From a virus (Duplodnaviria > Caudoviricetes), in IMG/VR virus record IMGVR_UViG_3300020814_000535: a DNA stretch of 64,000 nucleotides; one strand, 5' to 3'. Below are positions 6,049 to 52,680 of the stretch, piece after piece. The notes below the pieces were generated by a model. That model saw only the letters and a list, made by a program, of their open reading frames with translations, was not told where the DNA came from and ran no database searches. The position numbers were made by a program, and so were the translations under genes. The stretch's first letter is position 1, and every line of letters begins with the position of its first letter.

Positions 6049-6056
6049 GCGTCACC

Positions 6057-29890: not shown

Positions 29891-29903
29891 ACGATTATTT
29901 CAG
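29891..29903 (-). promoter_or_regulatory. conserved motif CTGAAATAATCGT, candidate leaderless promoter
   Basis: 12/13 identical to 46822..46834; both end 3 nt before a start codon that lacks an SD. Confidence 0.5.
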
Positions 29904-29926
29904 TTTTTTAGATTTCTGCCAAGAAG

Positions 29927-32900
29927 CTAACCACCAATAGTACCTACGGCATATCGACCAGTCCACTTTTTGAGCGTACCAACGATATTGTCCATCGTAT
30001 CTTCAAACCAGGCGTCATAACCAAGATCTGCCTCTGGCTTCCATTCTCCAAACAAGGTGCTCCAGGTAGACGCAGGCATTTTTCTTGTAGGAATCCCGCC
30101 CGTAAATGGACGTCCATGATGCAACAATGGGTTCATCGTGATGGGTTCTCCCCAAGGCGTGTAATTAAGGATCTTTTTGGCCACAAAAAGACCGACAGCT
30201 CCCATGGCCGCACTTATTGGAGCAGACAGCATAGTTGAGTATGGACTACTTAAAGCCCTCAGCTTACTGGCGGCTTGTTCACCCCAAACCTTCTTGTAAA
30301 CGCCTTCGGTAATAACCCCCAAAGCCTCCATCGAGCTAAGGAGACACCAGTCGTTAACATACACACACATATCTGGAGTAACCTCGGTTAGAAAACCGCT
30401 CTCACGAGTGAAGGTGTGAACTACCTGCTCTACGTCTATAGGACCAACCATATCCGAATAATCGTCTACAATAAAAATCGTGTCATAAGGCTTGATGCTC
30501 GCATCGCCAATACCGATAATATCTCCTTTGTAAATATCTTTCGCATCTCTAGCTAACAAACTCAATGCGTAGCGTCTTGCCATGTTTTCGTTGTTTACAT
30601 TAACAAACTCACCTACTCTAACTCTTGTATCTTCTGTTGGCAGAGCATTATCAAGTTTCAAAGTAAAAGACTCCATCTCAGTTTGCATTTGCAAATCAAC
30701 AGATTCTTTCTTTTCAGAATCTACCTGGCTTTTTGGATACTTAATAACAATTGTATTGGCAACATCTCTTGCATCGGCCTTGATATTATTCGCTACGATA
30801 TGAGAAGCCCCCGTCCATAGATGATACTGTCTAAATGGGCGAATAAATCCTGCTTCTTTAGCCAACTGCAAACGCTGTTCGTTGTATTTGGCAAATGTCT
30901 TCTTTACTTCTTTTGTCTTGTTAAAGATCTGTTCAACACTATTTAAACTACCAGCACTAGTCCCCATTGGCGTAACTGCAGCAAGAACTTGGTGGGCATT
31001 TATTTGTTTCCGCGACTCAATCGTCTCTTCTTCCGCAATAGCTTTAACCTTAGCTTGAGCAGACTGTTCGTCTGAAGTAGCTGTTCTAGCAAAATACATC
31101 TGATTGGGAAGGCCAAAGAAGTAAGTCATCCGCTCGCCGTATTTGTCAGGATAAGGAACAGGAGAGCCAATAAAGTTTGGATGTCTTAGCTCGAGTTCCT
31201 TGAAGATATCCCAAATTGTTGTCTGATAAATAAAGTACTTCAATTCCTTAAAGATTATCCCAGACCCAAACTTAGCTAGATCCTCTTCTGCTCGAGGAGC
31301 AAAGATATTGTCGTCTTCCGGAGCAGGAACGAATTGCCACTTGTGGGTTAACAGATCTCGTTCACTCGTTGTATCTCCGCGCGCCCACCGACCAAAGTGG
31401 AGAATCTCAGGTTGAGCCAACATCTCCTCAAAGATACGTCCTGTTGTAGCGTTGTCAGTAAAACCCCACCAGCACCAGGTCCCAAGTCCCCAGGTATTCT
31501 TGGATGTCGGCTTATCTAGTCCTTTAATATCTTGTTGCAATTCAGTCGCGTGGCTTTGAGCAACAATGGTTACTAGATCGTCTGTATCCGAGAAGAGGAC
31601 AGCCTGTATCTTGCCTGTGAAAACTCCGTCTAGCAGTTTGGGATCCGCCGAATAACCCAATTTAAGATGAATGTCCATTCCTTCTTGAAGTAGAAGGGAG
31701 GCTATTGGATTCTCTTGAAGTGTATTTGCTTTCGAAGGATCATCTAAAGCTCCCATTTCCGACACCAAGTTGCCCTTGCTGTCTCTTGGAGCGTTGCCTT
31801 TTGAATCATATCTTCCTCTCTGCGAATCATCTTCATGTTTGAATTTTCTATTACTAAGAACTCCAGAAACATTTGTTAGCTCAATTACACAGAGATCTGC
31901 AGCAATCTTTCTGCTTTTGATAACGCGAATTGATTGAACAGAATTGTAAGAAAAGAAATCGTCATAGGCCAGGCGCTTTCTCTGACCCGAATCATCTTCG
32001 ATAAAGTAAAGCTTGAATGTTGGGAATGCTCTAACTAATCTTTGAGCTTGTCCCTTTAAAAGCCTAGTCTCAAAATCATTAATTGCTTCGATCAAAGGAG
32101 AAGTGGTCGTAGAAGTAATATCCAGGGGAGTCGACCGTGCAGCGATTTTATTCATTGCGCGTCTTGATTGTTCGGCCATCTGGCGACCAGCATTCTTTCC
32201 CTTGATCCAAGGAATGTTCGAATCCACAACAGGATTCATAATCTTACTTTTATCTTTATTAGACTGAACACTCCAACATTCAAAATGCAAATGAGGTCTT
32301 GTATAAGGATAACCACTTCTTCCAAGAACAGCGATACAATCTCCGGCTTTTACCTTAGCTCCTGCCTTAACACCAGGGTTGATCGCCTGAAGGTGCATAT
32401 ATCTTGTATACTTAACTTGCTTGCCATTCGGATGCGCAATCTCTATAAACAATCCAGCCTGAGGAGTTGGAACTTTGCTGGCGAATTTAACAACTCCGTC
32501 CGCCACGCAATAAACTTCTATTCCAACATTGCCAAAGATATCCACACCCTCGTGAACGTACCCAATCTTTTTACCTTTATCTCTACTCCAAGCCATATAC
32601 TGCGCATGCGTAGCCTTACTTAAATTTGGGAAATCAGAAGGATTGCAACAGCCAGCTTCTACAAGAGTTTTTCTTGCAGCTGGAGAATTCCAATGAGCTA
32701 CCGCGCTCTTCCTTCTGCCTTCAAAAGAAAAAGGAGTCGTTCCAATATCTCTAACACCCAGAGGCTCGTTAATAACCGAATAGCTAGCTACAGGACAAAC
32801 CATACCGTATTCATTTGGGGTCTGAGTTGACTTCTTGGGTGGCCACGAAAACTGGAATTCAAGCGGTTCAATACCTAAATCAGAATTTGATCCGGATCTC

Positions 32901-35833
32901 ACTCCAACAGAAGCGGAAGGGCTGGTATCTTTACCTCCACTCGGAGTTGTCGTTCCGCCCATACGAGCCGTAACGCCTCCCCACAGTTCGTGAGTGTCGG
33001 AAGAATGAGGAATCAAACCTTGGCTCTGAATGACATACTCATCGTCATACCAGTTGGTGGAAATTCTACTGGGATCTGGTTTAACGGTTAGCTTAATGCC
33101 TTCTCCTGAATTACCTCCCTCATTCTCGTTGCGGGTAGAGTTGTTGTAAGAGATTTTATCGTAGAGAGGCTTCGCCATCTCGTTCTTAGCTAACTCTTCA
33201 ATAGCTTTTCTTGGACCTTTATCACCTCCACCAATATGTTCTAGATACGACTTCTTAAAGAAGTTTCCAGTTGAATCTTGAGCTTGGTCATATAGAGCAA
33301 GACTGTGTTCTCTAGCTTGATTCAAAAGGTTGCTGTCAATTAAAGATCCAGCTGTAGCTGCGGCTATTGATCCATCGTAGGTTGGATACCAGAAGTAGAT
33401 ATCAGGATCGTAGTCTATTAGTTTCTCTTTGGTAAACGTTGCATCCATCGACGATCCGACAGAAGAAAGTTGTTCTCTGAAATCTGGATAGGCTGTTTTT
33501 CCTTGCCCGATTCCCAGGCTTTCTTTCTTAATCTTGAGATGCTCGAACTCTGGAAGAGTTAGATATTCTCCATTAATGATTTTGTCCAACAAAGCTGAAA
33601 GATCTTTTTGGTATCTCTGAAAACCAAGTTCTTGTAGTCTTTGCTTTTTTTTATCATTTGCATCAGACATTCTGCTAATAGCTTTCTGGATGTCATTCAT
33701 TTGGCGCTCACCTTCGCCAGAACCTCCTCCGCTCCTACTAATAACATCTCTCTTTAGCTTATCGACTCCAAAAATAGAACCGTTGTTTGGCAAAGCTTCA
33801 ATCAATGAATAAGTTTGCCATCCCCCTCTCCAGGAATACATATCTCCGCGCCCGCTCCCAAATGTAACGCCAGGAGACATATTCCCATTCTTCCACATTC
33901 CACTTTCGGCATATTGGTCTCCCTTTCCCCAAACACCGCTCTTGCTAAACGTAGCTCCAGCTTTATCTGGGTAGATCGCTTCCATTACATCTTTGGCTAG
34001 TTTGTTATATAGAATACAACCTTCCAGAACCAGGTCATAAAAAGCTTTGTTCTGTTTTGAACTAGAGACAGAAGGCTCGATCATATACCAGCATTCTCTA
34101 GAGGCCTTAGTATTCTTGTAAAGAACCTTCCAAACTTCATTTCTCATTCCATTCTCACTCATCACGAATTCTTGTTGAAGGGCTTCTTGGTCTTCCAGGC
34201 GGGTTTTGCTTTCAATGCCGGCAGACGTCAATGACAAGATAGCTTTAGAACGTCCAGGTTGATCTGGAATAGTCGCGGCATCAAAAGACTTCCCTATAAA
34301 TTCTGAGAGACCAAAAAGACTCAGAAAGTCATTCTTCACAAATACGTTTCTTATCCCTTGCGGGACCATCTTGTAACGAAGATTAATGTTTTCCCAGGAA
34401 TCATAGATGTTTGCCAGATTGTTTACCGCATAGTTTGTTCCATTCATAGTAAACTCGGCTGTTGAATCATAGCCTCCTGTAAACTGACAAGTCGGATAAG
34501 AATGACCAGCCATTGCAATAATGGCAATACAGGGAGAGAAAGTTACAGAACAAGCTTCCAGTACAATGCCATTGTTAGGCATTCCAGGAGTAGAGGAGCT
34601 AATCAGGAAACTTTCTTCTTTGCGATAGAGTTTGTATCCGCCGGCAGATATCTTCTTTCCGCCCACCTTGATCGAGGCTTGAGTTCCAAAACCTTCCATC
34701 TCTTGATACAAACTAAGCTGGGAATCTTCCTTCTCGGCTTGTTTAATCATCTGCAAACGTTTCAACACTTCTGCTCCAGCCGAATTGATAGCTTCTTTAT
34801 TTTCGTTTACAACAGCCTTCCCCGACTTCTTGCTCTGCATATAGCCAGGAGTAAGTTTCTGGAGTACTGGCAAAAGAACTTCGGAGGTTGCCTTGGTTAA
34901 CTCGCCCTTCTGGAATCCCATCAGAGCCATTCCTTCTGGCTGTGTTAGAATTCCTCTCTCCTTCATCTTCTGAGCCCAGGTATCTACAGCATATTGGCTA
35001 ATCAAAGTATCTGAGTTCTCAACAGGAACGCATCTTCCCTGAACCCCAGGAAGATCGAAGTTAGAGCTTTGGCCATAGTCTAGAGTTTCGCGCCAAGCCT
35101 CCATTGCTCCATCAGGATTACCTTTTAATGTGTCGAGAAGTTCCTTTGCGGCTGCTTCCGCTGCAGCGTTCGTGTGCGGAAGAATCTTGAATTTATTCCA
35201 GGCAATAGTTGTTCTTTCGGCTTCGCTATTGAGTCCGATGTAGGGCCAAGTAACTGACTGACATTTCTTAAGCACAGGTTGATAGAACATCTTCCATAAA
35301 TCGGAATCTTTAATGTTTCCGGGAGAGGCGAAATCTGGCCCTGTTTTAAAAGCCAGGGTCGAAACGTAGGGAAAGTAGTTAAACCAGATAAAGTTAAATT
35401 GACCGTGCAGCGTATCTGGCATTCCCGGAATCGTCGAGAAAGTCATCGACGTAAGGACTAGCGCAGTTTGATTGAGTTCCTTGTACTTTTCGTCTCTTTG
35501 GCCGCCGACCAATGCTAATTGATCGTTTAGATATTTATTCGAGACTACACAGAAAGGAGTCGATCTTAGTCCTGCGAATAAAGGACGAAGACGATTGTTA
35601 ATTGATTCGTTTCCGCAAAAAGGAACAGATAAAGAAACGCTGATAACCGAATGGCCAGATTTGGCCTTCTGCGGAGCTGCTGCCCGAAGAGAATCCCACT
35701 GATTCAAGAAACTTCTTCTACTAACAGATATCTGATCTGGAGGTATTTGCAGAAGAACATCGTTAATCGTAAAGTCGTCTTCTTCTACCTTGCCAGCTCT
35801 AATTGCAGATTTGATTTCGGTAGTTTCGGGCAA
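29927..35833 (-). CDS. baseplate hub / tail-associated lysin with an M23 metallopeptidase domain
   Basis: M23 motifs HEGVD (HxxxD), 'TRYMHL', 'VKAGDCIAVLGRSG...PHLHFE' at about 32230..32800; C-terminal hub-like region 'IHLKLGYS...GVFTGKI' and 'GDASIKPYD'. Confidence 0.8.
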   Translation of the reverse strand: MPETTEIKSAIRAGKVEEDDFTINDVLLQIPPDQISVSRRSFLNQWDSLRAAAPQKAKSGHSVISVSLSVPFCGNESINNRLRPLFAGLRSTPFCVVSNKYLNDQLALVGGQRDEKYKELNQTALVLTSMTFSTIPGMPDTLHGQFNFIWFNYFPYVSTLAFKTGPDFASPGNIKDSDLWKMFYQPVLKKCQSVTWPYIGLNSEAERTTIAWNKFKILPHTNAAAEAAAKELLDTLKGNPDGAMEAWRETLDYGQSSNFDLPGVQGRCVPVENSDTLISQYAVDTWAQKMKERGILTQPEGMALMGFQKGELTKATSEVLLPVLQKLTPGYMQSKKSGKAVVNENKEAINSAGAEVLKRLQMIKQAEKEDSQLSLYQEMEGFGTQASIKVGGKKISAGGYKLYRKEESFLISSSTPGMPNNGIVLEACSVTFSPCIAIIAMAGHSYPTCQFTGGYDSTAEFTMNGTNYAVNNLANIYDSWENINLRYKMVPQGIRNVFVKNDFLSLFGLSEFIGKSFDAATIPDQPGRSKAILSLTSAGIESKTRLEDQEALQQEFVMSENGMRNEVWKVLYKNTKASRECWYMIEPSVSSSKQNKAFYDLVLEGCILYNKLAKDVMEAIYPDKAGATFSKSGVWGKGDQYAESGMWKNGNMSPGVTFGSGRGDMYSWRGGWQTYSLIEALPNNGSIFGVDKLKRDVISRSGGGSGEGERQMNDIQKAISRMSDANDKKKQRLQELGFQRYQKDLSALLDKIINGEYLTLPEFEHLKIKKESLGIGQGKTAYPDFREQLSSVGSSMDATFTKEKLIDYDPDIYFWYPTYDGSIAAATAGSLIDSNLLNQAREHSLALYDQAQDSTGNFFKKSYLEHIGGGDKGPRKAIEELAKNEMAKPLYDKISYNNSTRNENEGGNSGEGIKLTVKPDPSRISTNWYDDEYVIQSQGLIPHSSDTHELWGGVTARMGGTTTPSGGKDTSPSASVGVRSGSNSDLGIEPLEFQFSWPPKKSTQTPNEYGMVCPVASYSVINEPLGVRDIGTTPFSFEGRRKSAVAHWNSPAARKTLVEAGCCNPSDFPNLSKATHAQYMAWSRDKGKKIGYVHEGVDIFGNVGIEVYCVADGVVKFASKVPTPQAGLFIEIAHPNGKQVKYTRYMHLQAINPGVKAGAKVKAGDCIAVLGRSGYPYTRPHLHFECWSVQSNKDKSKIMNPVVDSNIPWIKGKNAGRQMAEQSRRAMNKIAARSTPLDITSTTTSPLIEAINDFETRLLKGQAQRLVRAFPTFKLYFIEDDSGQRKRLAYDDFFSYNSVQSIRVIKSRKIAADLCVIELTNVSGVLSNRKFKHEDDSQRGRYDSKGNAPRDSKGNLVSEMGALDDPSKANTLQENPIASLLLQEGMDIHLKLGYSADPKLLDGVFTGKIQAVLFSDTDDLVTIVAQSHATELQQDIKGLDKPTSKNTWGLGTWCWWGFTDNATTGRIFEEMLAQPEILHFGRWARGDTTSERDLLTHKWQFVPAPEDDNIFAPRAEEDLAKFGSGIIFKELKYFIYQTTIWDIFKELELRHPNFIGSPVPYPDKYGERMTYFFGLPNQMYFARTATSDEQSAQAKVKAIAEEETIESRKQINAHQVLAAVTPMGTSAGSLNSVEQIFNKTKEVKKTFAKYNEQRLQLAKEAGFIRPFRQYHLWTGASHIVANNIKADARDVANTIVIKYPKSQVDSEKKESVDLQMQTEMESFTLKLDNALPTEDTRVRVGEFVNVNNENMARRYALSLLARDAKDIYKGDIIGIGDASIKPYDTIFIVDDYSDMVGPIDVEQVVHTFTRESGFLTEVTPDMCVYVNDWCLLSSMEALGVITEGVYKKVWGEQAASKLRALSSPYSTMLSAPISAAMGAVGLFVAKKILNYTPWGEPITMNPLLHHGRPFTGGIPTRKMPASTWSTLFGEWKPEADLGYDAWFEDTMDNIVGTLKKWTGRYAVGTIGG

Positions 35834-35836
35834 GTA

Positions 35837-38800
35837 TTAATCCTCGTTCATAATCTTAGAAAGTCTTTGCGGCGTAAGGGAAGCTCTGTCGTCCATTACT
35901 CTAGAATTTACATTCGCTCCACCCAATGCAACTGATATCTCAGAGTTTAACATACCAAAATTGATTCCTCCAGGAGATGAGCCTCTGACCTGAACATTGG
36001 TTCCTGCAGGAGAAATACGGGCTCTATTCATTCCAGCCATTGGTGTTTGTGCCGTAGGACTACCTTTCATTGCATGATAATTGTCAGGATCATGGATATT
36101 GGTTCCTATGTATTGGCCGCCACTTCCTGATTTCATTCTAGGCATTGGTGGAGCCAAGTCTCCAGGTCCCATTGTCTTCGGTGGACTACTAAACAAAGCA
36201 GCTATTCCAATCGCCGCCCCAATTCCCAATGCAACAGGCTTTGCATGCTCAATCAGCTTTCCGCCTGTAGCCATCAGTCTATTCTTAACAGCCATTGCTC
36301 TCTGAGTAACTTCGGACATTGTTCCAGGAGTGTGCAAAGGAGGAACTGCACCAGCAAGCGGAGAAGCTCCTTTGAAGCTTCTGGTAAGCAACGAAGACAT
36401 TTCTTCTGCGGTAATGTTTCTCGCGCGCCCTCGCTGGATATCTCGAAATCTAGCAGGGCTCATTCCGTAGGCTGGGTTGAACTTGTGGAATGACGTCATT
36501 GAGCCCGAGATGTCCTGAGCCGCTTGTTCTAGGCCGATACCTGGAATATCTTTCTCGATTAATCCATTAAGCCCTTCCAGCGCAACAGTCCCACCCTCGT
36601 CCATAAAACGCGCACCAATAGTTCCTGTGCCAACAACCTGTCTTACATTCCTAACAAGACTTTCTGTATCGCGATTACCAATAGCTTGTTGAATATTTCC
36701 CATCAAAGTAAGAATGTTCTTTTCTTCACCAGGTTTAATGTGCTTTCCAGAAATCGGAGTTTGTTCCAACCACTCAAGTAGCCCAAGGGCATTCATCTGC
36801 CTCTGATGACTAAGAGCTTTTGAGTTCTCGAGGATAGCTGCCCGTGCGGTCTGAGTTGCCTCGGAAATCAAGCCAATCTGCTCTTTAGTCGCACCTAATT
36901 TAATAGCTGCTCCAGCCATAGCTTCTGTATCGGCAATAGAGATACCACTGACCGCAGCCTTCTTTGCTTTGAGCAACTGATTGCGAATCATATAAGCATC
37001 CGCTTCTGCAGAACGAGATCTCTTAATAGCTTCATCGCTAAGGTTGGAAGAAAGCATCATGGCAGAAATAATGTCAGCATCATAGTCTCCCATAGCTCCC
37101 ATCATTGGAGAAAGTCTGAGTAGTCCCAAATCTTCGAGAGCATCCCCGTTCTTTAAGTAGGCTTTCGTAACCCTTTCACCAAAATACGCATACGGCCCTT
37201 CTCCCTCAACGACCTTAAATTCCACAGGTACAGCAGAATATGGAGAAATGGAAGGATGTCGCATCATCATGCCACCAATTGAGCCACCCTCCGCAAACAA
37301 CTTTTCCTTTATCTTGCCAACTTCTAAGCCCCCGTAAAGCTCTTCCATGTCTTTTAACATCATCTCTGCATAATCCTTTGTTATACCAATTTGATTCTGC
37401 TTCAAGAAAACACCAGGATTAGGTGGAGCTGCAGTCAAGAATCTACTTCCCATCAAACGTCCGCGCATCAAGGATTCACCACCAGTCCCCGTCAACATTC
37501 TTGCTCGAGTAATATCTTGAGCAAACTGATGCATCTCTGCCTGCATAGCTGTTCGATTTATTTCTCCTCTTTCAAATTGCTCAGCTACATCAACAAATCC
37601 TCTGTACTTGGCAGCCAAATCCGGAATGACCTCTTCTCCAGAGGGAGGAACATATGAGGCTAATTGCGAGATTGTATCTGCCGCAGGTACGTAAAAATCT
37701 CCTAAGCCAGAAAGATTTACGAGACCACCTTTCTGAAAGAAGTCTTTAGTAAGTTGAGAAGGAGTCAATCCAAGTCCGCCAGAAGGCTTAATTAAACTTT
37801 CAATCGATTTTCCAAGCTCGCTCGCCTCAAAAGCTTTGTGTGGATATCTGTAGGTCATTCGTCCCATAATCTCTTCGTGAACATCTCGTCCAAGCTCACC
37901 CAGATTAGGGGCCGTTAAAAACTCAAACAATCGAGGCTCAATTGTTCCTCTACCGCCCGAACCCGAACCATACTCTCCTGCAAAAGAGAATTGAGCTATA
38001 CCAATCGGAATTCCTCTAGAAATCTCTGCAGCTTCTTGAGAAGAGAGACCGACAGTCTTCTGCCAATAACCCCTAGAAACTGGAACAGAAAGAGCTTCTT
38101 GAGCTTTCACCAAAGCTTCTTCGAAAGAAACATTTTGAGACTTAGCTAAACGAGCTGCTGTCAGATTGGTGAGCCAGTCAGACTCTAAGTTCTTCCATCC
38201 AAACACCTCTGGCACTGCTCCGAAAACACGCCCCATCTGTTCTGGAGAAAGTTTACTTGCACGAGCAATCCTGACAAGTTCTGACAAAACTTGTTCTCTT
38301 TGAAGCCCTCCGCTAGCTTCGGCAACCTGTGTAATTTGATTCATCGTTGCCAAAGGATTCCTTAAAAATTCTGAAGTTATTCCTCTTTCGGGCGCTCCAT
38401 ATGTTTTCCAACTAGTCCCAGATCCACGACGTCTTCCAATCCTTGATTTCGACATATTTAATTTTGCGTAGTCATATAGGGCTGTAAACATCTGTTTGTA
38501 ATGAAGCTGTCTATTTTTACGCAGTTCGTCCATTGAAATAAGAGCATCCACGCCAAGTCCAGCACCGCCCACTCTTTTTCCTATCCATTCTCTCATTGCA
38601 TCGGTCTCAACAACTGTAAGCATAGCTTTAGCGTCACCGAATACTTTGAATCGCTCCATCCGTCCCGTTTCGCTAATACCTGTAACCTGTACATAGTCTC
38701 CAGTGTTTTTGTCTTGATGTCTAATCGCATTAATCAATTTCATATTACGTCTTGCAACTACAGGCTCTCCATGGGGATCGTAGCCAAGAACAGTCCCTTT

Positions 38801-40483
38801 CTCTATCTCCTTGTTTAAATCCCGAGAAGGAACTCGGAGGCCCCAATCTGCTTCTCTTGGATTTAAGATCTCTCCTAAACCAAGTAGAGAATCACTAGCA
38901 ACCTTCATTCTCTCAATTTGCAACTGGCCAAATTGAGCCGCTTTCTCCCTGGAAATAATACCCGAACCTTCAAGCATTAGTCCTTGCATTTCAGAACCCA
39001 TGCTCGAGGGAATATACATAGTTCGAACCATCGGGATAGGCGTTGCTCTCTTTTTGGCCGCCCACCCAAAACGACTTGTTAGGGGGTCTTCTAGGATGGC
39101 TGTCTCAGAAGAAATCGTTGGTGTAAACAAATCTCGAATTGCCTGACCAGGTCTACGAGCCCAATCAAACTCACTAGAAAACAAAGGATCTAGTTTTCTG
39201 ACGTCCGTAAGAGAAATAATCCTGTTAGCTATTTGATTAGGAGAATGTCCAGGAAAAACACTTAATCTCTTTTCTCCTTCAAAAATACCTCGACTCAATA
39301 AATCTGAATAATAAAGAGAACTTTCAATCTCTTCTCCAGCGGGTCCATACAAGTGGGCAATATGTTTTCTTAAGCCGATATATTCGTCATGCCCCGCATG
39401 CAAGTCTTTTGGAAGTCGATCTACCCATTCTAGAGGTTGAGTGATTTGTTGATGAAAAGCGCGTTCCACTTCGTGAATACGACGTCTGGTTAATTTGTGC
39501 TCTTGCATCATTTCGTGAACATGTTGACTCAAAAGAACTTGAGCGGCCCACTCCTCATATCGAGCATTCTTCTTAAGTAGATATCCTTCCGTAGTCTTCT
39601 CTGTTAACCAAAACTCTCCGGCAATGTATTGAGACTGCTGCGTAGCCCCTTTAACAACCATTTTTTTGTCTTTTCTCAGAGACAAAGGAATAGTAAAGGT
39701 CGCCTGTGGGATCTTATATCCCTTTTTACCTTTGAGTTGTTTTCCAAGATAGGGTGAATCAAAAATCTGGATTCTTAATTCAGATCCAGGAACATCGGGT
39801 CTCGCCGTACCCCTTAGACGAACATGCCCCTTCAGAGTTTTCTCAATCTCTTGTATAGTCTCTGCTAAACTTCCCCTTCCTTCTAGGCTGGCAAGAGAAA
39901 TACTTTGGAGTTTTTGTCTTGGCAACTTTGGAAGTTCTGTTGTAACCAGTCCAAGACCCTGGTCAAGCCTCCCTCTTAAGACATCAACATCTCTCAGGAA
40001 GGCAGATACTGTACGCTGCATGTAGATTGAAGAAGAACCTTTTGCAGTTTGTTCGAGGTCGCGCAGAAGGTCTACAGCGGTTTGGGCCTGCCCATTCATA
40101 ATCTTTTCGGTCAGTAGACCTGCAAACTTTCCGGTAGGATCGGAATGTTTAAGAGCCCTAGTAATTGCCGAATCAACATCTTTGAAACTTAATGTCGTCA
40201 CGCCTCTCTCAACCTCATCAATAAGATTTCTCAGTCCAGTTGCGCTAAAATCACTAACTCTTCCAGTGGGAATCCCTTTAAAGAGAGTCGAGGTTGCATT
40301 CTGGGTTGCTGAATAGGCTTTCTCAAATGGGCTGGGAAGATTAGCCCTTCCTAGTTCACCAAAGATACTCTTGAAATCAGTATCGACATACCACTTACGC
40401 ACACCTAGCCCAACAGCTGCGGTTCCGCCAGCAGTGGCTACTACATCCTTAAAGGAAATATCATCATCTTTCTTGAGAGGCAT
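35837..40483 (-). CDS. candidate single-chain two-barrel (beta + beta'-like) RNA polymerase, probably virion-associated
   Basis: colinear motifs EGSGIIS (aa 505), K613/K619, VDALIS, GGRGTIEPRL, LMRGRLMGSR, RHP (R1075), DYDAD (D1133/1135/1137), EQIGLIS, EQTPISGKH (H1248); hydrophobic segments at both ends. Confidence 0.75.
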   Translation of the reverse strand: MPLKKDDDISFKDVVATAGGTAAVGLGVRKWYVDTDFKSIFGELGRANLPSPFEKAYSATQNATSTLFKGIPTGRVSDFSATGLRNLIDEVERGVTTLSFKDVDSAITRALKHSDPTGKFAGLLTEKIMNGQAQTAVDLLRDLEQTAKGSSSIYMQRTVSAFLRDVDVLRGRLDQGLGLVTTELPKLPRQKLQSISLASLEGRGSLAETIQEIEKTLKGHVRLRGTARPDVPGSELRIQIFDSPYLGKQLKGKKGYKIPQATFTIPLSLRKDKKMVVKGATQQSQYIAGEFWLTEKTTEGYLLKKNARYEEWAAQVLLSQHVHEMMQEHKLTRRRIHEVERAFHQQITQPLEWVDRLPKDLHAGHDEYIGLRKHIAHLYGPAGEEIESSLYYSDLLSRGIFEGEKRLSVFPGHSPNQIANRIISLTDVRKLDPLFSSEFDWARRPGQAIRDLFTPTISSETAILEDPLTSRFGWAAKKRATPIPMVRTMYIPSSMGSEMQGLMLEGSGIISREKAAQFGQLQIERMKVASDSLLGLGEILNPREADWGLRVPSRDLNKEIEKGTVLGYDPHGEPVVARRNMKLINAIRHQDKNTGDYVQVTGISETGRMERFKVFGDAKAMLTVVETDAMREWIGKRVGGAGLGVDALISMDELRKNRQLHYKQMFTALYDYAKLNMSKSRIGRRRGSGTSWKTYGAPERGITSEFLRNPLATMNQITQVAEASGGLQREQVLSELVRIARASKLSPEQMGRVFGAVPEVFGWKNLESDWLTNLTAARLAKSQNVSFEEALVKAQEALSVPVSRGYWQKTVGLSSQEAAEISRGIPIGIAQFSFAGEYGSGSGGRGTIEPRLFEFLTAPNLGELGRDVHEEIMGRMTYRYPHKAFEASELGKSIESLIKPSGGLGLTPSQLTKDFFQKGGLVNLSGLGDFYVPAADTISQLASYVPPSGEEVIPDLAAKYRGFVDVAEQFERGEINRTAMQAEMHQFAQDITRARMLTGTGGESLMRGRLMGSRFLTAAPPNPGVFLKQNQIGITKDYAEMMLKDMEELYGGLEVGKIKEKLFAEGGSIGGMMMRHPSISPYSAVPVEFKVVEGEGPYAYFGERVTKAYLKNGDALEDLGLLRLSPMMGAMGDYDADIISAMMLSSNLSDEAIKRSRSAEADAYMIRNQLLKAKKAAVSGISIADTEAMAGAAIKLGATKEQIGLISEATQTARAAILENSKALSHQRQMNALGLLEWLEQTPISGKHIKPGEEKNILTLMGNIQQAIGNRDTESLVRNVRQVVGTGTIGARFMDEGGTVALEGLNGLIEKDIPGIGLEQAAQDISGSMTSFHKFNPAYGMSPARFRDIQRGRARNITAEEMSSLLTRSFKGASPLAGAVPPLHTPGTMSEVTQRAMAVKNRLMATGGKLIEHAKPVALGIGAAIGIAALFSSPPKTMGPGDLAPPMPRMKSGSGGQYIGTNIHDPDNYHAMKGSPTAQTPMAGMNRARISPAGTNVQVRGSSPGGINFGMLNSEISVALGGANVNSRVMDDRASLTPQRLSKIMNED

Positions 40484-43400
40484 TAGCCCTCCAATTCTCC
40501 TCTGCGATAAAGCCCTCTTATCTCTTCGCTTCTATCTTCTTTAAGCTGGAGATTAACAGAATGTTTCTTGTCTCCAAAACGAGGAAGTATTGTTACGTCG
40601 ATTGGTTTTACTCCATGCTTATATAATACTTCAAGAACTCGTTCCCGCACTTCTTGCTGATTTAGCTTCGGACCTTCTTCCACTTCTTCTGCTGCTGCTT
40701 CAAGATAAGGTCTCTGTGCTGCGGCTTTAATGTCGTCTGGCCAAATGTCGTAATCAAAGTTAGATTCTCCAAGATTTTCTACTATTTTTAACTTCAAATC
40801 TTCGAGAGAAACAAGAGGAGAGTTGTGGTAAACCCCTATAAAACTTTGATAAGAATGCCCGTCAGGAACTTCGAAATCATAGACCTCTCCGTCATAATCT
40901 TTGCTAGAAATCTCCTCTACGCGGTATGCAATAAATCCATCACCCAGTATGGCTCGCGTAGATTTATCAATTGGTTCAGTTGAGTAAATGGTCTTGCGAT
41001 TGTAGTTCCTCGTAACACAACGGAAAGAAACAGGCTGTCTGCTTGCTTCCCAAATTAACTTAGCCAAATAGCATAAAGCTTTATTGGTCACCATAAGTCT
41101 ATCTCTTCCGTCTTTACTGCCGTCTCCATCTAAAAGCCCCCCAAGAAGAGCCTGTTGCGACTCTCTTGTAATATTGGTTATCCAATATGGAATTTTCTTG
41201 GTGTCGCAGCCTCGTCCAATCCAAGTCTCAAATAAAGTTCCCAAAAACCCACTGTTGACCTTCAAACAACAACTATTTCCTGTATCTCTGTACCTTTCGT
41301 ACACAGAAGAAACCAGACCAAACTTTTCTTCAATTACTTTTTTCGCCAATTCAAGAACAGGCCTTTCCTTAATAGTCATGGTTATCATAACGCCACGTAC
41401 CCGCTTCCCCGTTGACCACACATTCCCATCTGCCAAAATTAATCCAGTCAACCACGCAAGTTGCTCGTCAATCTCCATAATCCTCTTTACGGGCCTAATT
41501 ATTCCCGAATGAGGCCTTACAAAATCCCCGTCTTTCTTAAATAATTTCTTCAAGTCTTGAGGCAACTCTTCCAGTAAATCAACGACAGGATTCTTCTCTG
41601 AACATTTTAGGTATGGTTTAATCAAATAATGGCTTGTGGTCAGGTCTTTAATAGCAATCCACTCTGGCTTGTAATTTACAAAATGGATATTCTCACAATG
41701 AGAGCATTTCCATCTTCCTTCTCTAGCTAGACAGATAGAACTAGGTCTAACGTCATATGGACACTTCTCTGTCTTAATTGCCAAAACTAAATGATTCCCC
41801 GTCGCCTCCATCTTGAACAATTCATCATGTGCAATACGAATGGTATAAATTTTTTCATTAATCATACGTTTAAATATATCGCTTATTATCCGTATGTCAC
41901 CATATTTATCATAAATCTTATCTCCAATCTTTATTTCTTCAGCCATCTTCTCTTCTAGATTTGGAGCCGACATTAATACCTGGTCTGGCGGTAAACAGAA
42001 TCCTACCCAATCTGGGCCAGGAAGCGGCTTGTCTTCTAATTTCTCTGGCAGAAGTTTAGTTCTTCTATACCAATCTGCATAAGTTTCGTCTTTAGTCCGA
42101 GAGGAGAGATATTCGTTCTTTAATCCTTCGTTTACTGGAAACCCCTCTGTCTCTTGAAGTTGTTTTAGTTCTTCCGCCGCGATTTCTGCTTTCTTCATCT
42201 CTTCTTCGGTTAACAAACCTTTCTTTTGAGCCTCCGTGTAATTGGCGACATCTTGCATCTTCCAACGAGCCATCATCAGGGGCTTCTCGTTCTCAGGGAT
42301 CATCTCAAGAATCTTCTCTCGTTCTTCCGCATCTGCCTTCACAAACTCTGTGAAATAATCCCTTTCTCGTCTGGGCAATGAACGGTGGATGGTTGCTGGA
42401 TTCTTCGTAAAAGGATTCATTCCAAAAAGAGTTTCTCGTCTTTGAGCATCGTATTTACGCGCCTCCCCCTTGTCTCCCTCGGCCACAGCTTCGTTCTTTA
42501 GCTTAGTGAATTTAACATACTTTAGTATATCAAAATACTCTTCAATCTCTCTTCTTCGTTGGACGTCCGAAGGTATGCCGTCCCATCCCAAAAAGTGAGC
42601 CATTGAAGTTAGAAATGGTTTTACGAAGTCACGGATTGGATGTTGCCAATATCCCGATTGAGTGCCCCATACCTGAGTCTTCTCATAATCTTCTACAGCT
42701 GTTCTAGCGTGAACCAGTTTGGAAGCTGGAGAGATAGGAGTCAGATACTCAAACGGAGTTTCTGCGTTGTGGCTCAGGGTCTCCCAGTAAGAGCCCAAAA
42801 GCTGACCCATCCACCCAGGACCGCCTTCCGCTTTGGCGGCTTCATTTTCCCGCGCGAGCGCTAACTCGGATTCGTTGTAAATCTTTTCTTTGTAAAGATA
42901 AGAGGAAAATTGCTTACGCTGTTTCTTTTCGGCAACCTGTTTGATTGTTTCGCTAATTCGCTCTTGGTCTTCTGTTGTTAATTGCCCGCGCTTATCCATT
43001 GCTCGAGCTTGAACAAGAGCTTGGCGATATTCCCTACTGTAAGGGGCCAAGTCGCCCAAGATCTTAACGCGATGGGAAACAGGATAATCTTCAGGGCTGA
43101 CTCCCTTTAATTCAGGATGTATAGTTTCGTAACCAAGACCTGGAACACGCTCTTCGCCTCTAGGAACCAAGGTGTAAGGATCGCCCTGTCTAAAATTCTC
43201 AGATCGGTCATTTGGTCCAGGCATCCATGAAGGTTGGGTATTGGCTAAAGGATTATAAAAGTCTTTTGTTTGTTCATTAGGATAGAGGCGTCTAAAGAAT
43301 TCGGTGTTATGAACTAGCGTTCCTTCAACTACATAGTAATGTTTGTCACTGATTGTTAAATCATAAACAGGAGGGCGAATATCTTCGAGTTCTTTTGCCG

Positions 43401-46400
43401 ACCTCACATAGGCAAAAAGCATCCCGTCGTATATAAAGCTTTTCCCACTTAGCCGAGAAGTTTGCTCAGGCAATCTCCTTGATAAAATTGCCTCAATTTG
43501 TTTTGTAGCTTTTTTTCCCCAGCTTAAGTAATGTCGTAATGAATTTTTACGCTTAGTCCCTTGAGGATAGGCTCCTCTCCCGCTTTCTTCATAGGAAGTA
43601 ACAAGATTCCCAATGACACCAAGGCCAAGCGCTAAATCAAAAACATCGCGAATTAACTGTTTAGAAACAGAAGTAAACCCAGACTTACTCTTCTCTTTGT
43701 TACACCAGCCATCTCCAGAAACAACGCCAGCTAGCAAATGAACGTATCTGCTCGGTTCCATTTGCTTCACAAACAACGGTACATGCTTCTTGTGTGCCCC
43801 TTGTCCACAAGAAGCACTTAGCCATCTTGCAAATTCAGAACAAGAAGCCCTAAGAACAATTCCTTCTCCATTATTCTTGCTAATACAAGCATCTACTCCT
43901 AATTCTTTTTTCAATATCGAGGCTAAATGTTCGGCAATATCTCTTTCTTTTTCGGCCATACATAACGAAATTCTCCCATCTTCTGTAAATCCTTCAGCTA
44001 TAAACCAGCCAATAAAGTAAAGAAGATCATCGGACAATTTAACAAAACGATCTACGCGATCAGGAATATATCCCCTTTTTTGAGCAGTCAGGATAACCTT
44101 AATCGTTCTTTTTGAGAACCCTTCTCTCTTTAAAGATTTGCGAGAACAGACTCCGTTTAAGCCAAACTCGGCGAATTCAGTTGCCTTAGCCATCTCAATA
44201 TCTTTAATTTGTCTATAAACAAACTTGTCTGTAATAACCCCTCTTCCATAAGGAGCCAAATCAACAACATAATCTCCGAAAACAGCTGGTTTCAGTATTG
44301 GATAAACAACCATATCCCCTGGACAAATATCTTTAAGCTGAATATCTTTTAACTTAATTTCATCGCTGTTTCTTATTGGCTTAACATGACCTTGAGAATA
44401 TCTTTGTCTCTTAAATACAGGAATCCAATGATTTGCCGTCGCTCGTATCTTCGAATCGGTTGTAGAAACCTCAAGTTCAATAATCGATTCGCTATATTCA
44501 GTTTTCTTTAGGGTATTCTCTACAGAACGAAAAACTCCTCCTTGCGACAAAACCCTATCTCCAATACAAATTGTTTCAATAGGCATATAACCTTGCTCGG
44601 TATAAACAAGAGTTCCTTCTACAAAGCAGAATCCGACCGGATCTCCAATTTCCTTTTCCCAGTAAGCTCTTCCAGGAGAATAGATCTGTCCTGCCGAAGC
44701 CAGTTGTTCTTCCTGAGAAAACAGGTCTTGAGTGCCAGTCAAACGTTCTTTGAAAGAAGCCATCGCAAATCCAGGAAGGCCTACCATCTGGCGTAAACGA
44801 TAGACTTGCTCTCCAATTACCTGACTAGCGTCATTGGGACCAACAGGAGCACCTGGTCCAGATTCTCCAAGTCCAGGAAGCGATCTGCGTTCTCCAAAGC
44901 GCAAAGATTCTGGAGCGTATTCGCTGCCGCCCGATCCTTCTCTTAGCCATTCGTCAGAATGCATATAACGAACGGGTTTAACAATTCTTCCTATGGTCGC
45001 GCCAAGAAGAGGACCGATAAGAGGAACTTCCTCAAAAGCTGGAGATGTCTGGGGATAAGGTCGATCCCAATAATGCTCTCGTTCGAGGTTGTAGGTAAAA
45101 TTCTCTTGTATCCATTTACTTATCGGAGAGGGTTCGTCTTCGCCCCAAATCGCTTTCTCTCTGGCCTTATTAATCATCCTAGGATACCAATGTTGCTCGT
45201 ATCTGGTGATACGTTCACCCTGGATCGGCGACCTACCAAACATCCACCAACGCCCTTTCCGCACGGGCACTTCTTGTTCACCAGAATAGATTCTCTCTAA
45301 TTCATCTGGTCTTGTTGAAGGGACTAGAGCGCCAGGAATAAACGGGGCTATTGCTGCTACACCAAGAAGCAATCCTCCCCACTTAGCCATTCCGCCAAAA
45401 GTGGGTTTCTTGATTACGCTAAGTAATCTTCCAAGAACTCCCTTTTCTTCTTGTCTCGTAGCAATCCACTTAGCGGCTCTACCAACTCTTCCTTCTGTCA
45501 GTATATTTACTTCTCTATCTACGATAGCTTTCATTTCAGGAGAGAGCCCACGAATGATTTGTTCTTGTGGTTCAATCCCTTTTAGCTGCTGAAGAAACAT
45601 CTGCTCTCTAGCTGTATAGATCAGAGAGGCTTCAGATGCGGAGAAACCTTGTGTTTGAAGGGCTATTTGTTTGGCGATTCTCTCTCCATAACCAAGAACA
45701 GAACCACCTAAATAACCCATCAGAGGAAAAGCCGCTAGTTTAGTTAGACTAGTACTTCCTGGAGCTACTTCCTCTTGTCGTTCTCTAAGGGAGTGAAGCC
45801 CCGTTAATTCTGCTGTCCGAGAGAGAAGGACTTGTGATTTTGTCCATATTGTTCCCGCCGCAGCTGTTATTCCCTGGTCAAAAATTGTCTCATCAAAAAG
45901 AGAGCTTTCTCTGACCCAGTAATCTAGTTGATCATAGGCTAGCTTAGCTGCAGGAAGTGCTATCCCGAGTTTTAAAGCTAGCTTCCCAAAAGTCCTGAGT
46001 CCACTAGAAGGCTCGACTCCTGGACGGAATCTCCCGAGGCCAGGAACCTTCTGAAGGATTGGGAAGAATTCAAAAGGAGCATTAGCTAGTTGGTTAAACC
46101 TATCTACTAGGGATGTTCCATAACCAGAAATAAAACGCCTGGCCGCCTGAAAGCGTGTTTTCCCGCCGGCAAATCCGAATACTTCTTCCGCCTGTTTGCC
46201 AGCTGCATCAATAAACGGGATCCGCTGAGTAAAGACATCTTCGATTCCAGACCAGGGTGCGCCACGGAAAGATCTTGCATAGGCGCTTTGGAATCTAGGA
46301 GTTACAGAAAGAGGATTTCTGAGTACCGAAGCGTGCTCAAGGAGTACTTTGTCGCCCGTCCTGCCCAGATAAAGTTTTCCGTTCTCGAAACGGAAACCCT

Positions 46401-46818
46401 CGTTAAGCAACTCGGGGGAAGTAAAGTCGGCACCAGTTAGCTTGGTTAGATAATCTAACCATCCCCTGCCAAGATAATTGTCGGAAGACGACAATCCTTG
46501 GAGGATCTCGGGGGAAAAATACCTAAACTGTTGAGATGCTGTCTCGAGCGGAGACAACATATGCGACAATTGAAATGTGCGAAGGATTTTGCCGGGAGAA
46601 TATTCCTCTACCGCTCTAATGGCCTTTAGATAATAATCCCAACCCCTTTGATCTCCGATTTTAGTGTAACCGAATAAAGTAAGAGCCCCAAGGCCAAGTC
46701 CAGCTACCGCTATGTTAGCGTAGTGTCTTGAATCTGGATAAGGGAGTGGCTGCTCGCCAGATCGCCAATCATCTACAGGCTGGTTTTGATATAATTCAGG
46801 AACGAAGGAAGAAGCCAC
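40483..46818 (-). CDS. giant tape-measure-position / ejection protein with predicted membrane segments and two inteins (about 1278 aa after splicing)
   Basis: follows the tail chaperones; several Gly/Ala-rich hydrophobic stretches; two Hint+LAGLIDADG insertions. Confidence 0.7.
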   Translation of the reverse strand: MASSFVPELYQNQPVDDWRSGEQPLPYPDSRHYANIAVAGLGLGALTLFGYTKIGDQRGWDYYLKAIRAVEEYSPGKILRTFQLSHMLSPLETASQQFRYFSPEILQGLSSSDNYLGRGWLDYLTKLTGADFTSPELLNEGFRFENGKLYLGRTGDKVLLEHASVLRNPLSVTPRFQSAYARSFRGAPWSGIEDVFTQRIPFIDAAGKQAEEVFGFAGGKTRFQAARRFISGYGTSLVDRFNQLANAPFEFFPILQKVPGLGRFRPGVEPSSGLRTFGKLALKLGIALPAAKLAYDQLDYWVRESSLFDETIFDQGITAAAGTIWTKSQVLLSRTAELTGLHSLRERQEEVAPGSTSLTKLAAFPLMGYLGGSVLGYGERIAKQIALQTQGFSASEASLIYTAREQMFLQQLKGIEPQEQIIRGLSPEMKAIVDREVNILTEGRVGRAAKWIATRQEEKGVLGRLLSVIKKPTFGGMAKWGGLLLGVAAIAPFIPGALVPSTRPDELERIYSGEQEVPVRKGRWWMFGRSPIQGERITRYEQHWYPRMINKAREKAIWGEDEPSPISKWIQENFTYNLEREHYWDRPYPQTSPAFEEVPLIGPLLGATIGRIVKPVRYMHSDEWLREGSGGSEYAPESLRFGERRSLPGLGESGPGAPVGPNDASQVIGEQVYRLRQMVGLPGFAMASFKERLTGTQDLFSQEEQLASAGQIYSPGRAYWEKEIGDPVGFCFVEGTLVYTEQGYMPIETICIGDRVLSQGGVFRSVENTLKKTEYSESIIELEVSTTDSKIRATANHWIPVFKRQRYSQGHVKPIRNSDEIKLKDIQLKDICPGDMVVYPILKPAVFGDYVVDLAPYGRGVITDKFVYRQIKDIEMAKATEFAEFGLNGVCSRKSLKREGFSKRTIKVILTAQKRGYIPDRVDRFVKLSDDLLYFIGWFIAEGFTEDGRISLCMAEKERDIAEHLASILKKELGVDACISKNNGEGIVLRASCSEFARWLSASCGQGAHKKHVPLFVKQMEPSRYVHLLAGVVSGDGWCNKEKSKSGFTSVSKQLIRDVFDLALGLGVIGNLVTSYEESGRGAYPQGTKRKNSLRHYLSWGKKATKQIEAILSRRLPEQTSRLSGKSFIYDGMLFAYVRSAKELEDIRPPVYDLTISDKHYYVVEGTLVHNTEFFRRLYPNEQTKDFYNPLANTQPSWMPGPNDRSENFRQGDPYTLVPRGEERVPGLGYETIHPELKGVSPEDYPVSHRVKILGDLAPYSREYRQALVQARAMDKRGQLTTEDQERISETIKQVAEKKQRKQFSSYLYKEKIYNESELALARENEAAKAEGGPGWMGQLLGSYWETLSHNAETPFEYLTPISPASKLVHARTAVEDYEKTQVWGTQSGYWQHPIRDFVKPFLTSMAHFLGWDGIPSDVQRRREIEEYFDILKYVKFTKLKNEAVAEGDKGEARKYDAQRRETLFGMNPFTKNPATIHRSLPRRERDYFTEFVKADAEEREKILEMIPENEKPLMMARWKMQDVANYTEAQKKGLLTEEEMKKAEIAAEELKQLQETEGFPVNEGLKNEYLSSRTKDETYADWYRRTKLLPEKLEDKPLPGPDWVGFCLPPDQVLMSAPNLEEKMAEEIKIGDKIYDKYGDIRIISDIFKRMINEKIYTIRIAHDELFKMEATGNHLVLAIKTEKCPYDVRPSSICLAREGRWKCSHCENIHFVNYKPEWIAIKDLTTSHYLIKPYLKCSEKNPVVDLLEELPQDLKKLFKKDGDFVRPHSGIIRPVKRIMEIDEQLAWLTGLILADGNVWSTGKRVRGVMITMTIKERPVLELAKKVIEEKFGLVSSVYERYRDTGNSCCLKVNSGFLGTLFETWIGRGCDTKKIPYWITNITRESQQALLGGLLDGDGSKDGRDRLMVTNKALCYLAKLIWEASRQPVSFRCVTRNYNRKTIYSTEPIDKSTRAILGDGFIAYRVEEISSKDYDGEVYDFEVPDGHSYQSFIGVYHNSPLVSLEDLKLKIVENLGESNFDYDIWPDDIKAAAQRPYLEAAAEEVEEGPKLNQQEVRERVLEVLYKHGVKPIDVTILPRFGDKKHSVNLQLKEDRSEEIRGLYRRGELEG
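40822..41997 (-). mobile_element. intein 2 (392 aa) with LAGLIDADG homing endonuclease
   Basis: starts CLPPDQ; block B 'ATGNHLV'; 'WLTGLILADG' and 'ALLGGLLDGDG'; ends 'VYDFEV...HSYQSFIGVYHN' followed by Ser. Confidence 0.95.
43306..44628 (-). mobile_element. intein 1 (441 aa) with LAGLIDADG homing endonuclease
   Basis: starts CFVEGT; block B 'ATANHWI'; 'YFIGWFIAEG' and 'HLLAGVVSGDG'; ends 'VYDLTI...HYYVVEGTLVHN' followed by Thr. Confidence 0.95.
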
Positions 46819-46840: not shown

Positions 46841-47734
46841 TTACTTCTTGCCAGCTTTGAGTTTCCGACGTCGTTCAAGAGCTTGGATAACATCCTTGTA
46901 ATGCTCTTGCGCTTCTTCGACCATTTGCTCGCGCTTCTCTCCTAATTCCCTCATCTCCCAACCACTTCCAACTGCAAATACATCGTGCCCTTCTTCTTTA
47001 AAATTAACTCCATGGGTAGGCTTGTACTTCAAAATAGGAGAATCGGGCTCGTCTGGCTGCTTCTCTTGTGAAATAGGTTCTATCTTCTTTTTCGAAATAT
47101 CTTGATGACGCTTCAAAGCTTCTTGTCGAGCCTTCTCGAGATCTCTCTGCTGCATATCCCAAATCTCTTTAGCGTCTAGTTTAGGTCGCTGTGGCTCAGG
47201 TTGTTCTTCTTGTCCTGCGGGAATAATCTCAATTGGAGACTGCCTGATCCCAAGCTGGATTAATTTTCTTTCCGCAAGAGCCAGAGTGTTGATCATTGTC
47301 TGATAATCCATAGCGTAGATCTCTTCTGGTTTATACGGAAAAGCTATTGAGATAACCGAGACAAACTCATGGATAATCTGCTGTTTCCCGTCTAGTTCTG
47401 CCCGCGCCATATTCAGAGTGTAGTTAACTCCCTCTGCAGACGAAGGACATGAAGCTTCCCAGATATTATTGACAACAGTGCTAACAATCCCAGCTTTGAG
47501 AGTTGGGAACAAACGGATAAAAGATTTATCTAGAACACATTTCTTGAAGATCTCGTCTTCGAATGCAGCGAGAGGAATAAGGCCCCTCTCAAAGCCCTCC
47601 GCATATTCAAGATAGTCTTTTATCGAGAGAGTTCGCCAGGGGACAAGAGTATTGTCTGGGAAGAGAGTCGCGTAACTGCCCTTCCCGTACTTCTCGTGGA
47701 GAGAGACAACGGCAGGTAAAAGGTTAGAGTTCAA
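46841..47734 (-). CDS. tail assembly chaperone (second paralog)
   Basis: lies between tube genes and the tape-measure position; shares 'R.L...(D/E)Y ... E.....C.L ... KAG..ST' with 47724..48158. Confidence 0.6.
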   Translation of the reverse strand: MNSNLLPAVVSLHEKYGKGSYATLFPDNTLVPWRTLSIKDYLEYAEGFERGLIPLAAFEDEIFKKCVLDKSFIRLFPTLKAGIVSTVVNNIWEASCPSSAEGVNYTLNMARAELDGKQQIIHEFVSVISIAFPYKPEEIYAMDYQTMINTLALAERKLIQLGIRQSPIEIIPAGQEEQPEPQRPKLDAKEIWDMQQRDLEKARQEALKRHQDISKKKIEPISQEKQPDEPDSPILKYKPTHGVNFKEEGHDVFAVGSGWEMRELGEKREQMVEEAQEHYKDVIQALERRRKLKAGKK

Positions 47735-48158
47735 TTACGAGCATAGACGCCATTGAGGCTGGCACGAAGTTGCTCTGCTGTTGAATCTGTTCAAACAAAG
47801 TTGAAATCGTTCCTGCTTTTCGTGTTGCCCACTGGGAGTCAGAAGCCCAAAGCATACAGGTTCGAACATAAGCTTCTTCATACTGATAGACCGTTTCGAA
47901 CTTCTGAGACTGCATGGCAGTCTGAAGTTCTACATACTCCTGCCTCTGCATTGAACGAAAAATAAAAAGCTCTGTTGCCGAGAAACCAGTTGTAAATACC
48001 TGGTCGTACTTGGCCTTCCAAGCTTCTATCTGTTCTACAGTAGGGGCTCCAGTAAAATTACTGAGAGCGTCCTTTAGCTTCTTGCGCCGCTTCTCTTCTG
48101 CTTCCTTTTCTTTTTCCTCTTCAAGACGTTCCTGTTCAGTCTTTTCTAGTTCTGGCAT
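47724..48158 (-). CDS. tail assembly chaperone
   Basis: 'EQIEAWKAKY', 'FIFRSMQRQEY', 'CMLW'; synteny. Confidence 0.65.
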   Translation of the reverse strand: MPELEKTEQERLEEEKEKEAEEKRRKKLKDALSNFTGAPTVEQIEAWKAKYDQVFTTGFSATELFIFRSMQRQEYVELQTAMQSQKFETVYQYEEAYVRTCMLWASDSQWATRKAGTISTLFEQIQQQSNFVPASMASMLVIEL

Positions 48159-49871: not shown

Positions 49872-49896
49872 CAAACATATTGTTACACAATACTAT

Positions 49897-52513: not shown

Positions 52514-52680
52514 AGATATCCTACTTTCTTTTACGCACTTTTAGGCGCGTGCAAAAGTTCCTGGTTCAACGCGGCGGGTTTCGTCGAGCGCTCTCGCTTC
52601 CGACCAGAGCCTTCCGCTCCACAGGCTGCCACCGTAAAGTCTACGGCAGTTGGTTTCAAGTTAATCGCAGCATTCAAATC
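52500..52680 (-). ncRNA. predicted omega/reRNA overlapping the tnpB 3' end, guide about 52519..52500
   Basis: GC-rich hairpins (GTCG..CGAC; CTTTT-GC-ACGCGC..GTGCGT-AAAAG) at the right end, as known for TnpB RNAs; limits approximate. Confidence 0.55.

Follow-up and report, generated by a model that had tools for sequence, protein, structure and literature searches.

Why should the gene that sits in the tape-measure position of a contractile-tailed phage encode a protein whose core folds as an enzyme? The gene in question lies on the minus strand at positions 35837 to 40483 of a 64,000-nucleotide stretch of phage DNA (IMG/VR record IMGVR_UViG_3300020814_000535; the whole stretch is referred to as the window), starts with ATG and specifies a protein of 1548 amino acids (aa), P0001. 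The best explanation is that P0001 is probably a DNA-dependent RNA polymerase (RNAP) of the two-barrel type, a single polypeptide competent for catalysis, which is incorporated into the virion and then passed into the host. The components of this proposal differ in firmness: on the strength of a structural model, a single-chain two-barrel polymerase fold is close to certain; that P0001 is an active enzyme is predicted with high confidence, and that it travels in the virion is likely.

The gene is real, and a preliminary description made from the DNA letters had located it correctly: the minus-strand open reading frame (ORF) of 1548 aa is confirmed, all 12 of the peptides quoted from it are found in the order given, and the DYDAD motif lies exactly at 37073-37087. 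The window belongs to a phage genome of 188.6 kb, which is complete, carries direct terminal repeats and occurs in anaerobic-digester metagenome runs of a single study; no RNA data set is listed among those containing it. In one run, the probable source of the window, the region is spanned by a single contig at a depth of 37.7 with zero variants; two more runs of the same study cover it partially, with zero differences. P0001 has no match in Pfam, in PHROGs, among PDB sequences (searched with the single sequence and with a profile) or in cultured phages by tblastn; GTDB genomes yield zero confirmed loci for its family, and a feature search of the ESM Atlas returns scores below 0.9, which are leads only. 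Matches to calmodulin and Tus were rejected as noise.

An AlphaFold model of aa 270-1350 based on a 52-sequence alignment (model number equals protein number minus 269) has a pLDDT of 88.9 and a pTM of 0.87. Among the Foldseek matches listed in the PDB (ranks 1-50), all are RNAP β'-type chains; a Foldseek-independent VIA search, run against 48,161 chains, places two-barrel polymerases in each of its first 18 rows, and isolated double-psi β-barrels (DPBBs) come next. The single-chain two-barrel fold and the order of its halves, β before β', had been proposed from motifs and are borne out by these searches: aa 270-843 (model 1-574) align to RpoB/Rpb2 with Z of 11-12 and rmsd of 6-8 Å over about 400 residues, and aa 898-1350 (model 629-1081) align to RpoC, Rpb1, Pol I and Pol IV with Z up to 12.9. 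A DPBB was specifically looked for in the predicted structure and is there, aa 1012-1144 superimposing on the isolated DPBBs 7dbo and 7dww at 2.1 Å rmsd over 82 residues. The lysine barrel of the two-barrel superfamily also appears to be present, since K613 and K619 are conserved and model residues 1-574 align to β/Rpb2; putative equivalents of the bridge helix and trigger loop follow the Asp barrel at aa 1185-1219 and 1226-1245, within the β'-aligned range. Clamp elements in P0001 are suggested by further aligned ranges: its connector, which is about 160 aa long, and its C-terminal region match the N- and C-terminal clamp regions of β'. The proposed residue equivalences with E. coli RNAP follow from secondary structure and aligned ranges. 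The elements of this predicted architecture are located as follows:

35837..40483, minus strand: single-chain two-barrel RNAP in the tape-measure slot (P0001, 1548 aa), from conservation, AlphaFold model and fold searches
37955..39676, minus strand: β-like half, aa 270-843, holding the lysine barrel, from VIA alignment to RpoB/Rpb2
38618..38650, minus strand: K613 and K619, two lysines carried by neighbouring strands of the β-type barrel (model strands E342-347 and E351-356)
36434..37792, minus strand: β'-like half, aa 898-1350, with connector, aspartate barrel, and bridge and trigger helices, from VIA
37052..37450, minus strand: metal-site DPBB, aa about 1012-1144, from the match to 7dbo and 7dww
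36827..36931, minus strand: presumptive bridge-helix equivalent, aa 1185-1219, a long helix after the barrel (model H916-950)
36740..36808, minus strand: presumptive trigger helix/loop equivalent, aa 1226-1248, with E1240, K1247 and H1248 (model H957-976)

Conservation of the metal- and NTP-binding residues points the same way. An exhaustive phmmer search with aa 452-1280 as query (E <= 0.001) defines a family of 169 representatives of clusters at 50% identity; the counts that follow refer to 119 full-length homologs that are about 20-45% identical to the query. All three aspartates of DxDxD are retained throughout, and R851 is invariant as well.

37073..37087, minus strand: catalytic DxDxD, D1133, D1135 and D1137 (119/119)
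37253..37261, minus strand: RxP motif, R1075-P1077 (R 117/119, P 119/119)

The two lysines, like the RxP arginine, were expected to be invariant and prove to be nearly so, though not absolutely: K613 is kept in 113 homologs, and residue 619 is Lys in 114 and Arg in 4 more. The trigger element is likewise present, with an invariant-type lysine (K1247, 118/119) accompanied by E1240 (118/119) and H1248 (108/119), but it is not the MRTFH of E. coli; in the bridge-helix region S1207 reaches 99% and K1195 90%. Mean conservation is low outside these catalytic peaks, which therefore mark an active site under selection. Two details call for correction: D652 is conserved in just 72 of the homologs, and the spacers within DxDxD vary freely (DYDAD, DKDAD, DVDGD, DTDGD and others), so that "DYDAD variant" fits only P0001 itself and not a lineage. 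R1075-P1077 lies 55 residues before D1133, an RxP-to-DxDxD spacing within 20-100, and P0001 satisfies the published RNAP motif filter [RK]xPx{20,100}DxDxD (PMC10770324, Suppl. Data 4).

How does this polymerase relate to those already known? The whole model aligns with QDE-1 (Z 11.4, rmsd 5.0 Å, 461 residues), RDR2 (Z 10.6), P74-26 gp62 (Z 9.3, rmsd 4.3 Å, 322 residues), P23-45 gp96 (Z 7.6, rmsd 4.4 Å, 332 residues) and crAss gp66 (Z 6.3, rmsd 5.3 Å, 464 residues). Close relatives are not apparent among the solved enzymes, and the P0001 family is therefore, as judged from the model, a separate polymerase family. The best whole-length single-chain matches, the QDE-1/RDR2/YonO clade and P74-26 gp62, are not virion proteins, and assignment to the YonO/RNA-dependent RNA polymerase (RdRP) family was rejected, a PF05183 match being absent in P0001. 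P23-45 gp96 also has a single-chain two-barrel core with DxDxD encoded at the tape-measure locus and a proposed function in pre-early transcription (PMC10770324; PDB 8H2M/8H2N). However, gp96 has 5002 aa, belongs to a non-contractile tail and fuses ruler, membrane and peptidase domains, whereas P0001 has 1548 aa, a contractile tail, an M23 peptidase on the next gene and a giant partner, protein A, encoded upstream; gp96 is clamp-less, whereas P0001 has the clamp-aligned segments described above; and P23-45 has a second RNAP, whereas none was found in the P0001 genome. Searches by phmmer, with a profile run on PDB sequences and by tblastn on phages detected no sequence homology between P0001 and gp96. 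P0001 would work much as gp96 does, but neither sequence nor architecture places it in the gp96 family. Phage phi14:2, of the crAss-like type, also has a single-chain, virion-packaged two-barrel RNAP, gp66 (PDB 6VR4), encoded among giant virion genes; it comprises 2166 residues in the structure and is head cargo of a podovirus-like particle without a contractile tail. Membership of that family was also rejected, since P0001 has no sequence match to gp66 and its context is contractile-tailed and 0305phi8-36-like. The gp66 motif is DFDID.

The slot that the gene occupies is fixed. IMG/VR loci keep one gene order: the sheath, then three tube-like and two chaperone-like genes, giant protein A, the polymerase, the M23 hub, wedge and baseplate. 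In further contigs giant A, polymerase and hub also adjoin one another, and the polymerase slot is the same in 8/8 loci in which both neighbours could be read (L001-L005, L012, L013, L026). The sheath gene bears out the earlier claim of a contractile tail. The neighbours of the polymerase gene in the window are:

29927..35833, minus strand: large hub-type protein with M23 peptidase, gp147 slot, from Pfam M23 and synteny
40483..46818, minus strand: giant protein A, homolog of gp145 and ME3_35, directly upstream of the polymerase in all examined loci
46841..48158, minus strand: two putative tail-assembly chaperone genes, gp143/gp144 slot, from synteny only
48178..50604, minus strand: three related putative tail-tube genes, gp140-142 slot, from similarity via homologs, phrog_9206 and synteny
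50618..52513, minus strand: contractile tail sheath (phrog_16991, E 2e-64)

Searches with the sheath and with giant protein A both find the cultured phages 0305phi8-36, ME3, WH1, Edson, KLEB27-3 and MTATph1. The fixed slot (sheath, tubes, chaperones, giant A, RNAP, hub) thus places the phage in the 0305phi8-36 lineage, the 0305phi8-36/ME3/WH1 group; gene order is the same in 0305phi8-36 (gp145/gp146/gp147), ME3 (ME3_35-37), WH1 (gp096-094) and KLEB27-3, and giant A and the sheath are homologous. Two of the three 0305phi8-36 giants, gp145 and gp146, carry a virion-protein annotation based on mass spectrometry. Phage 0305phi8-36 uses a separate YonO-like protein, gp99, and its gp146, which was assigned as the tape measure from tail length (PMC2147016), lacks DxDxD, whereas ME3_36, WH1 gp095 and KLEB27-3 gp034 retain RxP and DxDxD like P0001. 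In these three slot proteins a Gly-containing β motif, the barrel start, RxP and DxDxD follow one another in the same order as in P0001, and the trigger Lys is in register in WH1 gp095 and KLEB27-3 gp034. The top fold matches in BFVD are halves of ME3_36 and a 1258-aa half-entry that, to judge by its length, fits WH1 gp095. Across these cultured phages the existing annotations go no further than tape measure, structural or hypothetical; a literature search within limits found no paper naming these slot proteins as polymerases, and ME3, WH1 and KLEB27-3 are absent from the Chaban supplements, in which the table is restricted to viruses with at least two RNAPs. Near the end of its genome, Acinetobacter phage ME3 appears to have a further two-barrel RNAP in split form, consisting of ME3_309 (L011:39454-41850), a 798-aa β-like protein whose length fits BFVD A0A172Q0S6, and, downstream of it, ME3_307 (L011:37115-38116), with DVDGD, both annotated as hypothetical.

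Packaging of P0001 in the virion is inferred from the fixed tail-operon slot together with a C-terminal cap that P0001 has in common with the virion protein gp146. The cap recurs in WH1 gp095, KLEB27-3 gp034 and an MTATph1 fragment; the comparison with gp146 gives an HHalign probability of 71% (E 3.7e-5), and hmmsearch gives 25 bits against gp146 and gp095.

35861..36034, minus strand: C-terminal cap, aa 1484-1541, candidate virion-assembly tag, from HHalign and hmmsearch
36188..36244, minus strand: hydrophobic segment, aa 1414-1432, possible membrane anchor, from Kyte-Doolittle hydropathy

The second of these features is what remains of a claim that hydrophobic segments flank the enzyme at both ends: aa 1414-1432 (Kyte-Doolittle 1.65) is the sole segment of P0001 that passes the threshold, and the N-terminal segment scores below 1.3. 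Among the 119 homologs, segments at >=1.5 are C-terminal in 54, N-terminal in 36 and internal in 0. A paralogous relationship between the C-termini of giant protein A and the RNAP was considered and rejected (HHalign probability 4%). What the cap is joined to can differ: gp146 carries a DEDD-like motif, an exonuclease-like piece in the polymerase slot (L006:19972-27585), and MTATph1 CDS0027 (L008:17363-24719) has an exonuclease domain and lacks DxDxD, its gene being split by a transposase and its cap residing on a separate downstream ORF. With the shared cap, these exonuclease-like pieces make the slot look like a constant cap with exchangeable cargo.

Giant protein A has 2111 aa, or 1278 after splicing of two LAGLIDADG-bearing inteins (C731-N1171 and C1608-N1999; window 43306-44628 and 40822-41997, minus strand). 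Many of its homologs carry one or two inteins at more than one insertion site, the site in L002 being a different one; structural proteins seldom contain inteins, and those of giant A, a presumed virion protein, may point to conserved functional sites. The protein is 45-70% conserved and its model is confident (pTM 0.80). A fold search that covered part of the model well gave PDB matches no higher than Z 5.4, a result that speaks neither for a new fold nor against a known one; the neighbours by fold are orthologs of giant A itself and, as the best named match, a "large polyvalent protein".

These properties bear on where in the particle the polymerase would be carried. Instead of lying in the tail, an active RNAP might travel as an ejection protein in the head or core, in the manner of crAss gp66 or of N4, with giant A as a trans-envelope channel. 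Both giants fold into compact, confidently modeled proteins, unlike long helical rulers; the conservation of giant A is above that usual for tape measures, the polyvalent-protein match fits, and the crAss RNAP is stored as capsid cargo (PMC10172136). However, the genes sit between the tail chaperones and the hub, a long way from those of the head; there is no further candidate for the tape measure; that role was given to gp146 on the basis of tail length; and P23-45 gp96 provides the example of a folded RNAP as part of a tape measure. For polymerase-bearing members, tail lengths were not found. Head packaging is, on balance, unlikely.

What would the polymerase transcribe? In the complete genome, motif scans and family searches turned up neither another RNAP nor a YonO/RdRP, nor any full sigma factor; the sole sigma-related signal is a weak match to sigma region 4. 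On the late strand, TTGGCA-17-RAYAAT occurs at window 29894-29922 and 49879-49907 (minus strand; 2 found versus 0.1 expected). These σ70-like late promoters end a few bases before ATG, and the mRNAs are possibly leaderless. A second alternative would make P0001 a non-virion late or middle RNAP with a YonO-like role, merely located in the late operon. P0001 is the sole RNAP found in the genome, and SPbeta YonO transcribes late genes; but here the late genes carry σ70-like promoters, the P0001 gene is itself late, the protein has no RdRP/YonO Pfam match, it shares its cap with a protein proven to be in virions, it has a hydrophobic segment in its tail, and the non-virion-type polymerases of its relatives (0305phi8-36 gp99; ME3_309/307) are separate genes outside the tail operon. 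This alternative is very improbable.

In the early region, genome 177-185 kb, small genes are arrayed on the plus strand. Of 11 copies of GYRMTKGTRC in the genome, 7 lie in this array; all 7 share a strand, sit in hairpins and closely precede ribosome-binding sites. The TKGTRC core is found upstream of 11/22 early starts versus 3/85 and 3/64 elsewhere. The hairpin element is a candidate promoter of the P0001 polymerase, possible but not favored; RNA-processing sites or terminators are also possible. The recurrent intergenic hairpins with an R-M-T-K-G-T loop lie outside the window, in L020:9170-17350 (genome 177170-185350), some of their stems showing compensatory changes; the same region holds a second, longer repeated hairpin family and is hairpin-rich in general. 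Exact 18-mer matches in IMG/VR proved to be unrelated.

The notion that P0001 is a structural relic, or that its two barrels serve a job other than mRNA synthesis (DNA pulling at entry, priming, RNA-templated synthesis), can appeal to QDE-1 and RDR2 being among the best whole-length fold matches and to a slot that tolerates polymerase loss, as in gp146 and the transposase-split MTATph1 gene, both with exonuclease-like pieces, but retention of the Asp triad, RxP and both lysines at 95-100% in 119 so divergent proteins argues for active ribonucleotide polymerisation and makes this the least probable of the alternatives.

A number of observations weigh against the view of P0001 as an active, virion-borne RNAP with its own promoter. 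Activity data or virion proteomics were not found for any polymerase-bearing member of the family. The structural Z scores are modest (6-13) and the rmsd values high; profile links to the catalytic cores of cultured relatives are each insignificant (HHalign probability <=2%); and gp146, the sole slot protein proven by mass spectrometry, is one without DxDxD, with only about 55-150 C-terminal residues in common. The promoter hexamer was picked post hoc, and the early zone holds 19 copies on the plus strand and 9 on the minus strand. The hairpin motif is unclustered in five IMG/VR contigs and three cultured genomes, the contigs holding little or no early region and the cultured phages being very distant.

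If P0001 is nevertheless what it appears to be, it would be made late, together with the tail proteins, from host-type promoters, and would be loaded into the tail lumen beside giant A by way of its C-terminal cap, probably partly unfolded and aided by the two upstream chaperones. Sheath contraction would expel it and refolding would follow, aa 1414-1432 possibly holding it at the membrane; it would then transcribe the early small-gene array, possibly from hairpin-embedded TKGTRC, with later genes subsequently transcribed by host RNA polymerase. A broader and decidedly tentative idea is that the tail lumen of this lineage contains a two-protein, enzyme-based "tape measure", with giant A as a conserved channel or partner and a cargo slot with a constant C-terminal cap that would usually hold a complete clamp-bearing RNAP and sometimes an exonuclease, the polymerase refolding to read hairpin promoters in the first-entering DNA.

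Some features of the surroundings are recorded here for completeness. Extra ORFs of about 190-230 aa lie between conserved tail genes in L002, L003 and L012, some with homing-endonuclease-like N-termini. An IS605 TnpB/Cas12f-like gene (window 52531-53712, minus strand) is inserted directly upstream of the sheath gene, and another TnpB-like ORF lies at genome 75563-76714. Near the tail-fibre region, G+C content is 51-54% at window 4322-7500 versus about 43% elsewhere, which suggests a recently acquired module. Four Gly/Ala-rich small proteins are encoded just upstream of the terminase gene on the late strand (L020:3582-6069, minus strand; no Pfam match in the three tested) and are possibly ejected membrane-channel proteins.

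The concept of a tail-delivered RNAP is already known. To our knowledge, the P23-45 group of Thermus siphoviruses is the only one for which tail delivery of a two-barrel RNAP has been shown. The P0001 family, with its 169 clusters, would extend tail delivery of RNAP to contractile-tailed phages and represents a polymerase family that is invisible to Pfam, PHROGs and sequence search. Because cultured, unrecognised relatives exist, the idea of a virion polymerase can be tested now and directly: the Bacillus phages WH1, Edson and KLEB27-3 and Acinetobacter phage ME3 carry the slot with intact motifs. If the proposal is correct, the "tape measure" of the 0305phi8-36-like lineage would be reassigned, P0001 would become a model for the passage of a 170-kDa enzyme through a tail tube, and the family may provide a single-subunit polymerase that is compact and has a promoter of its own.

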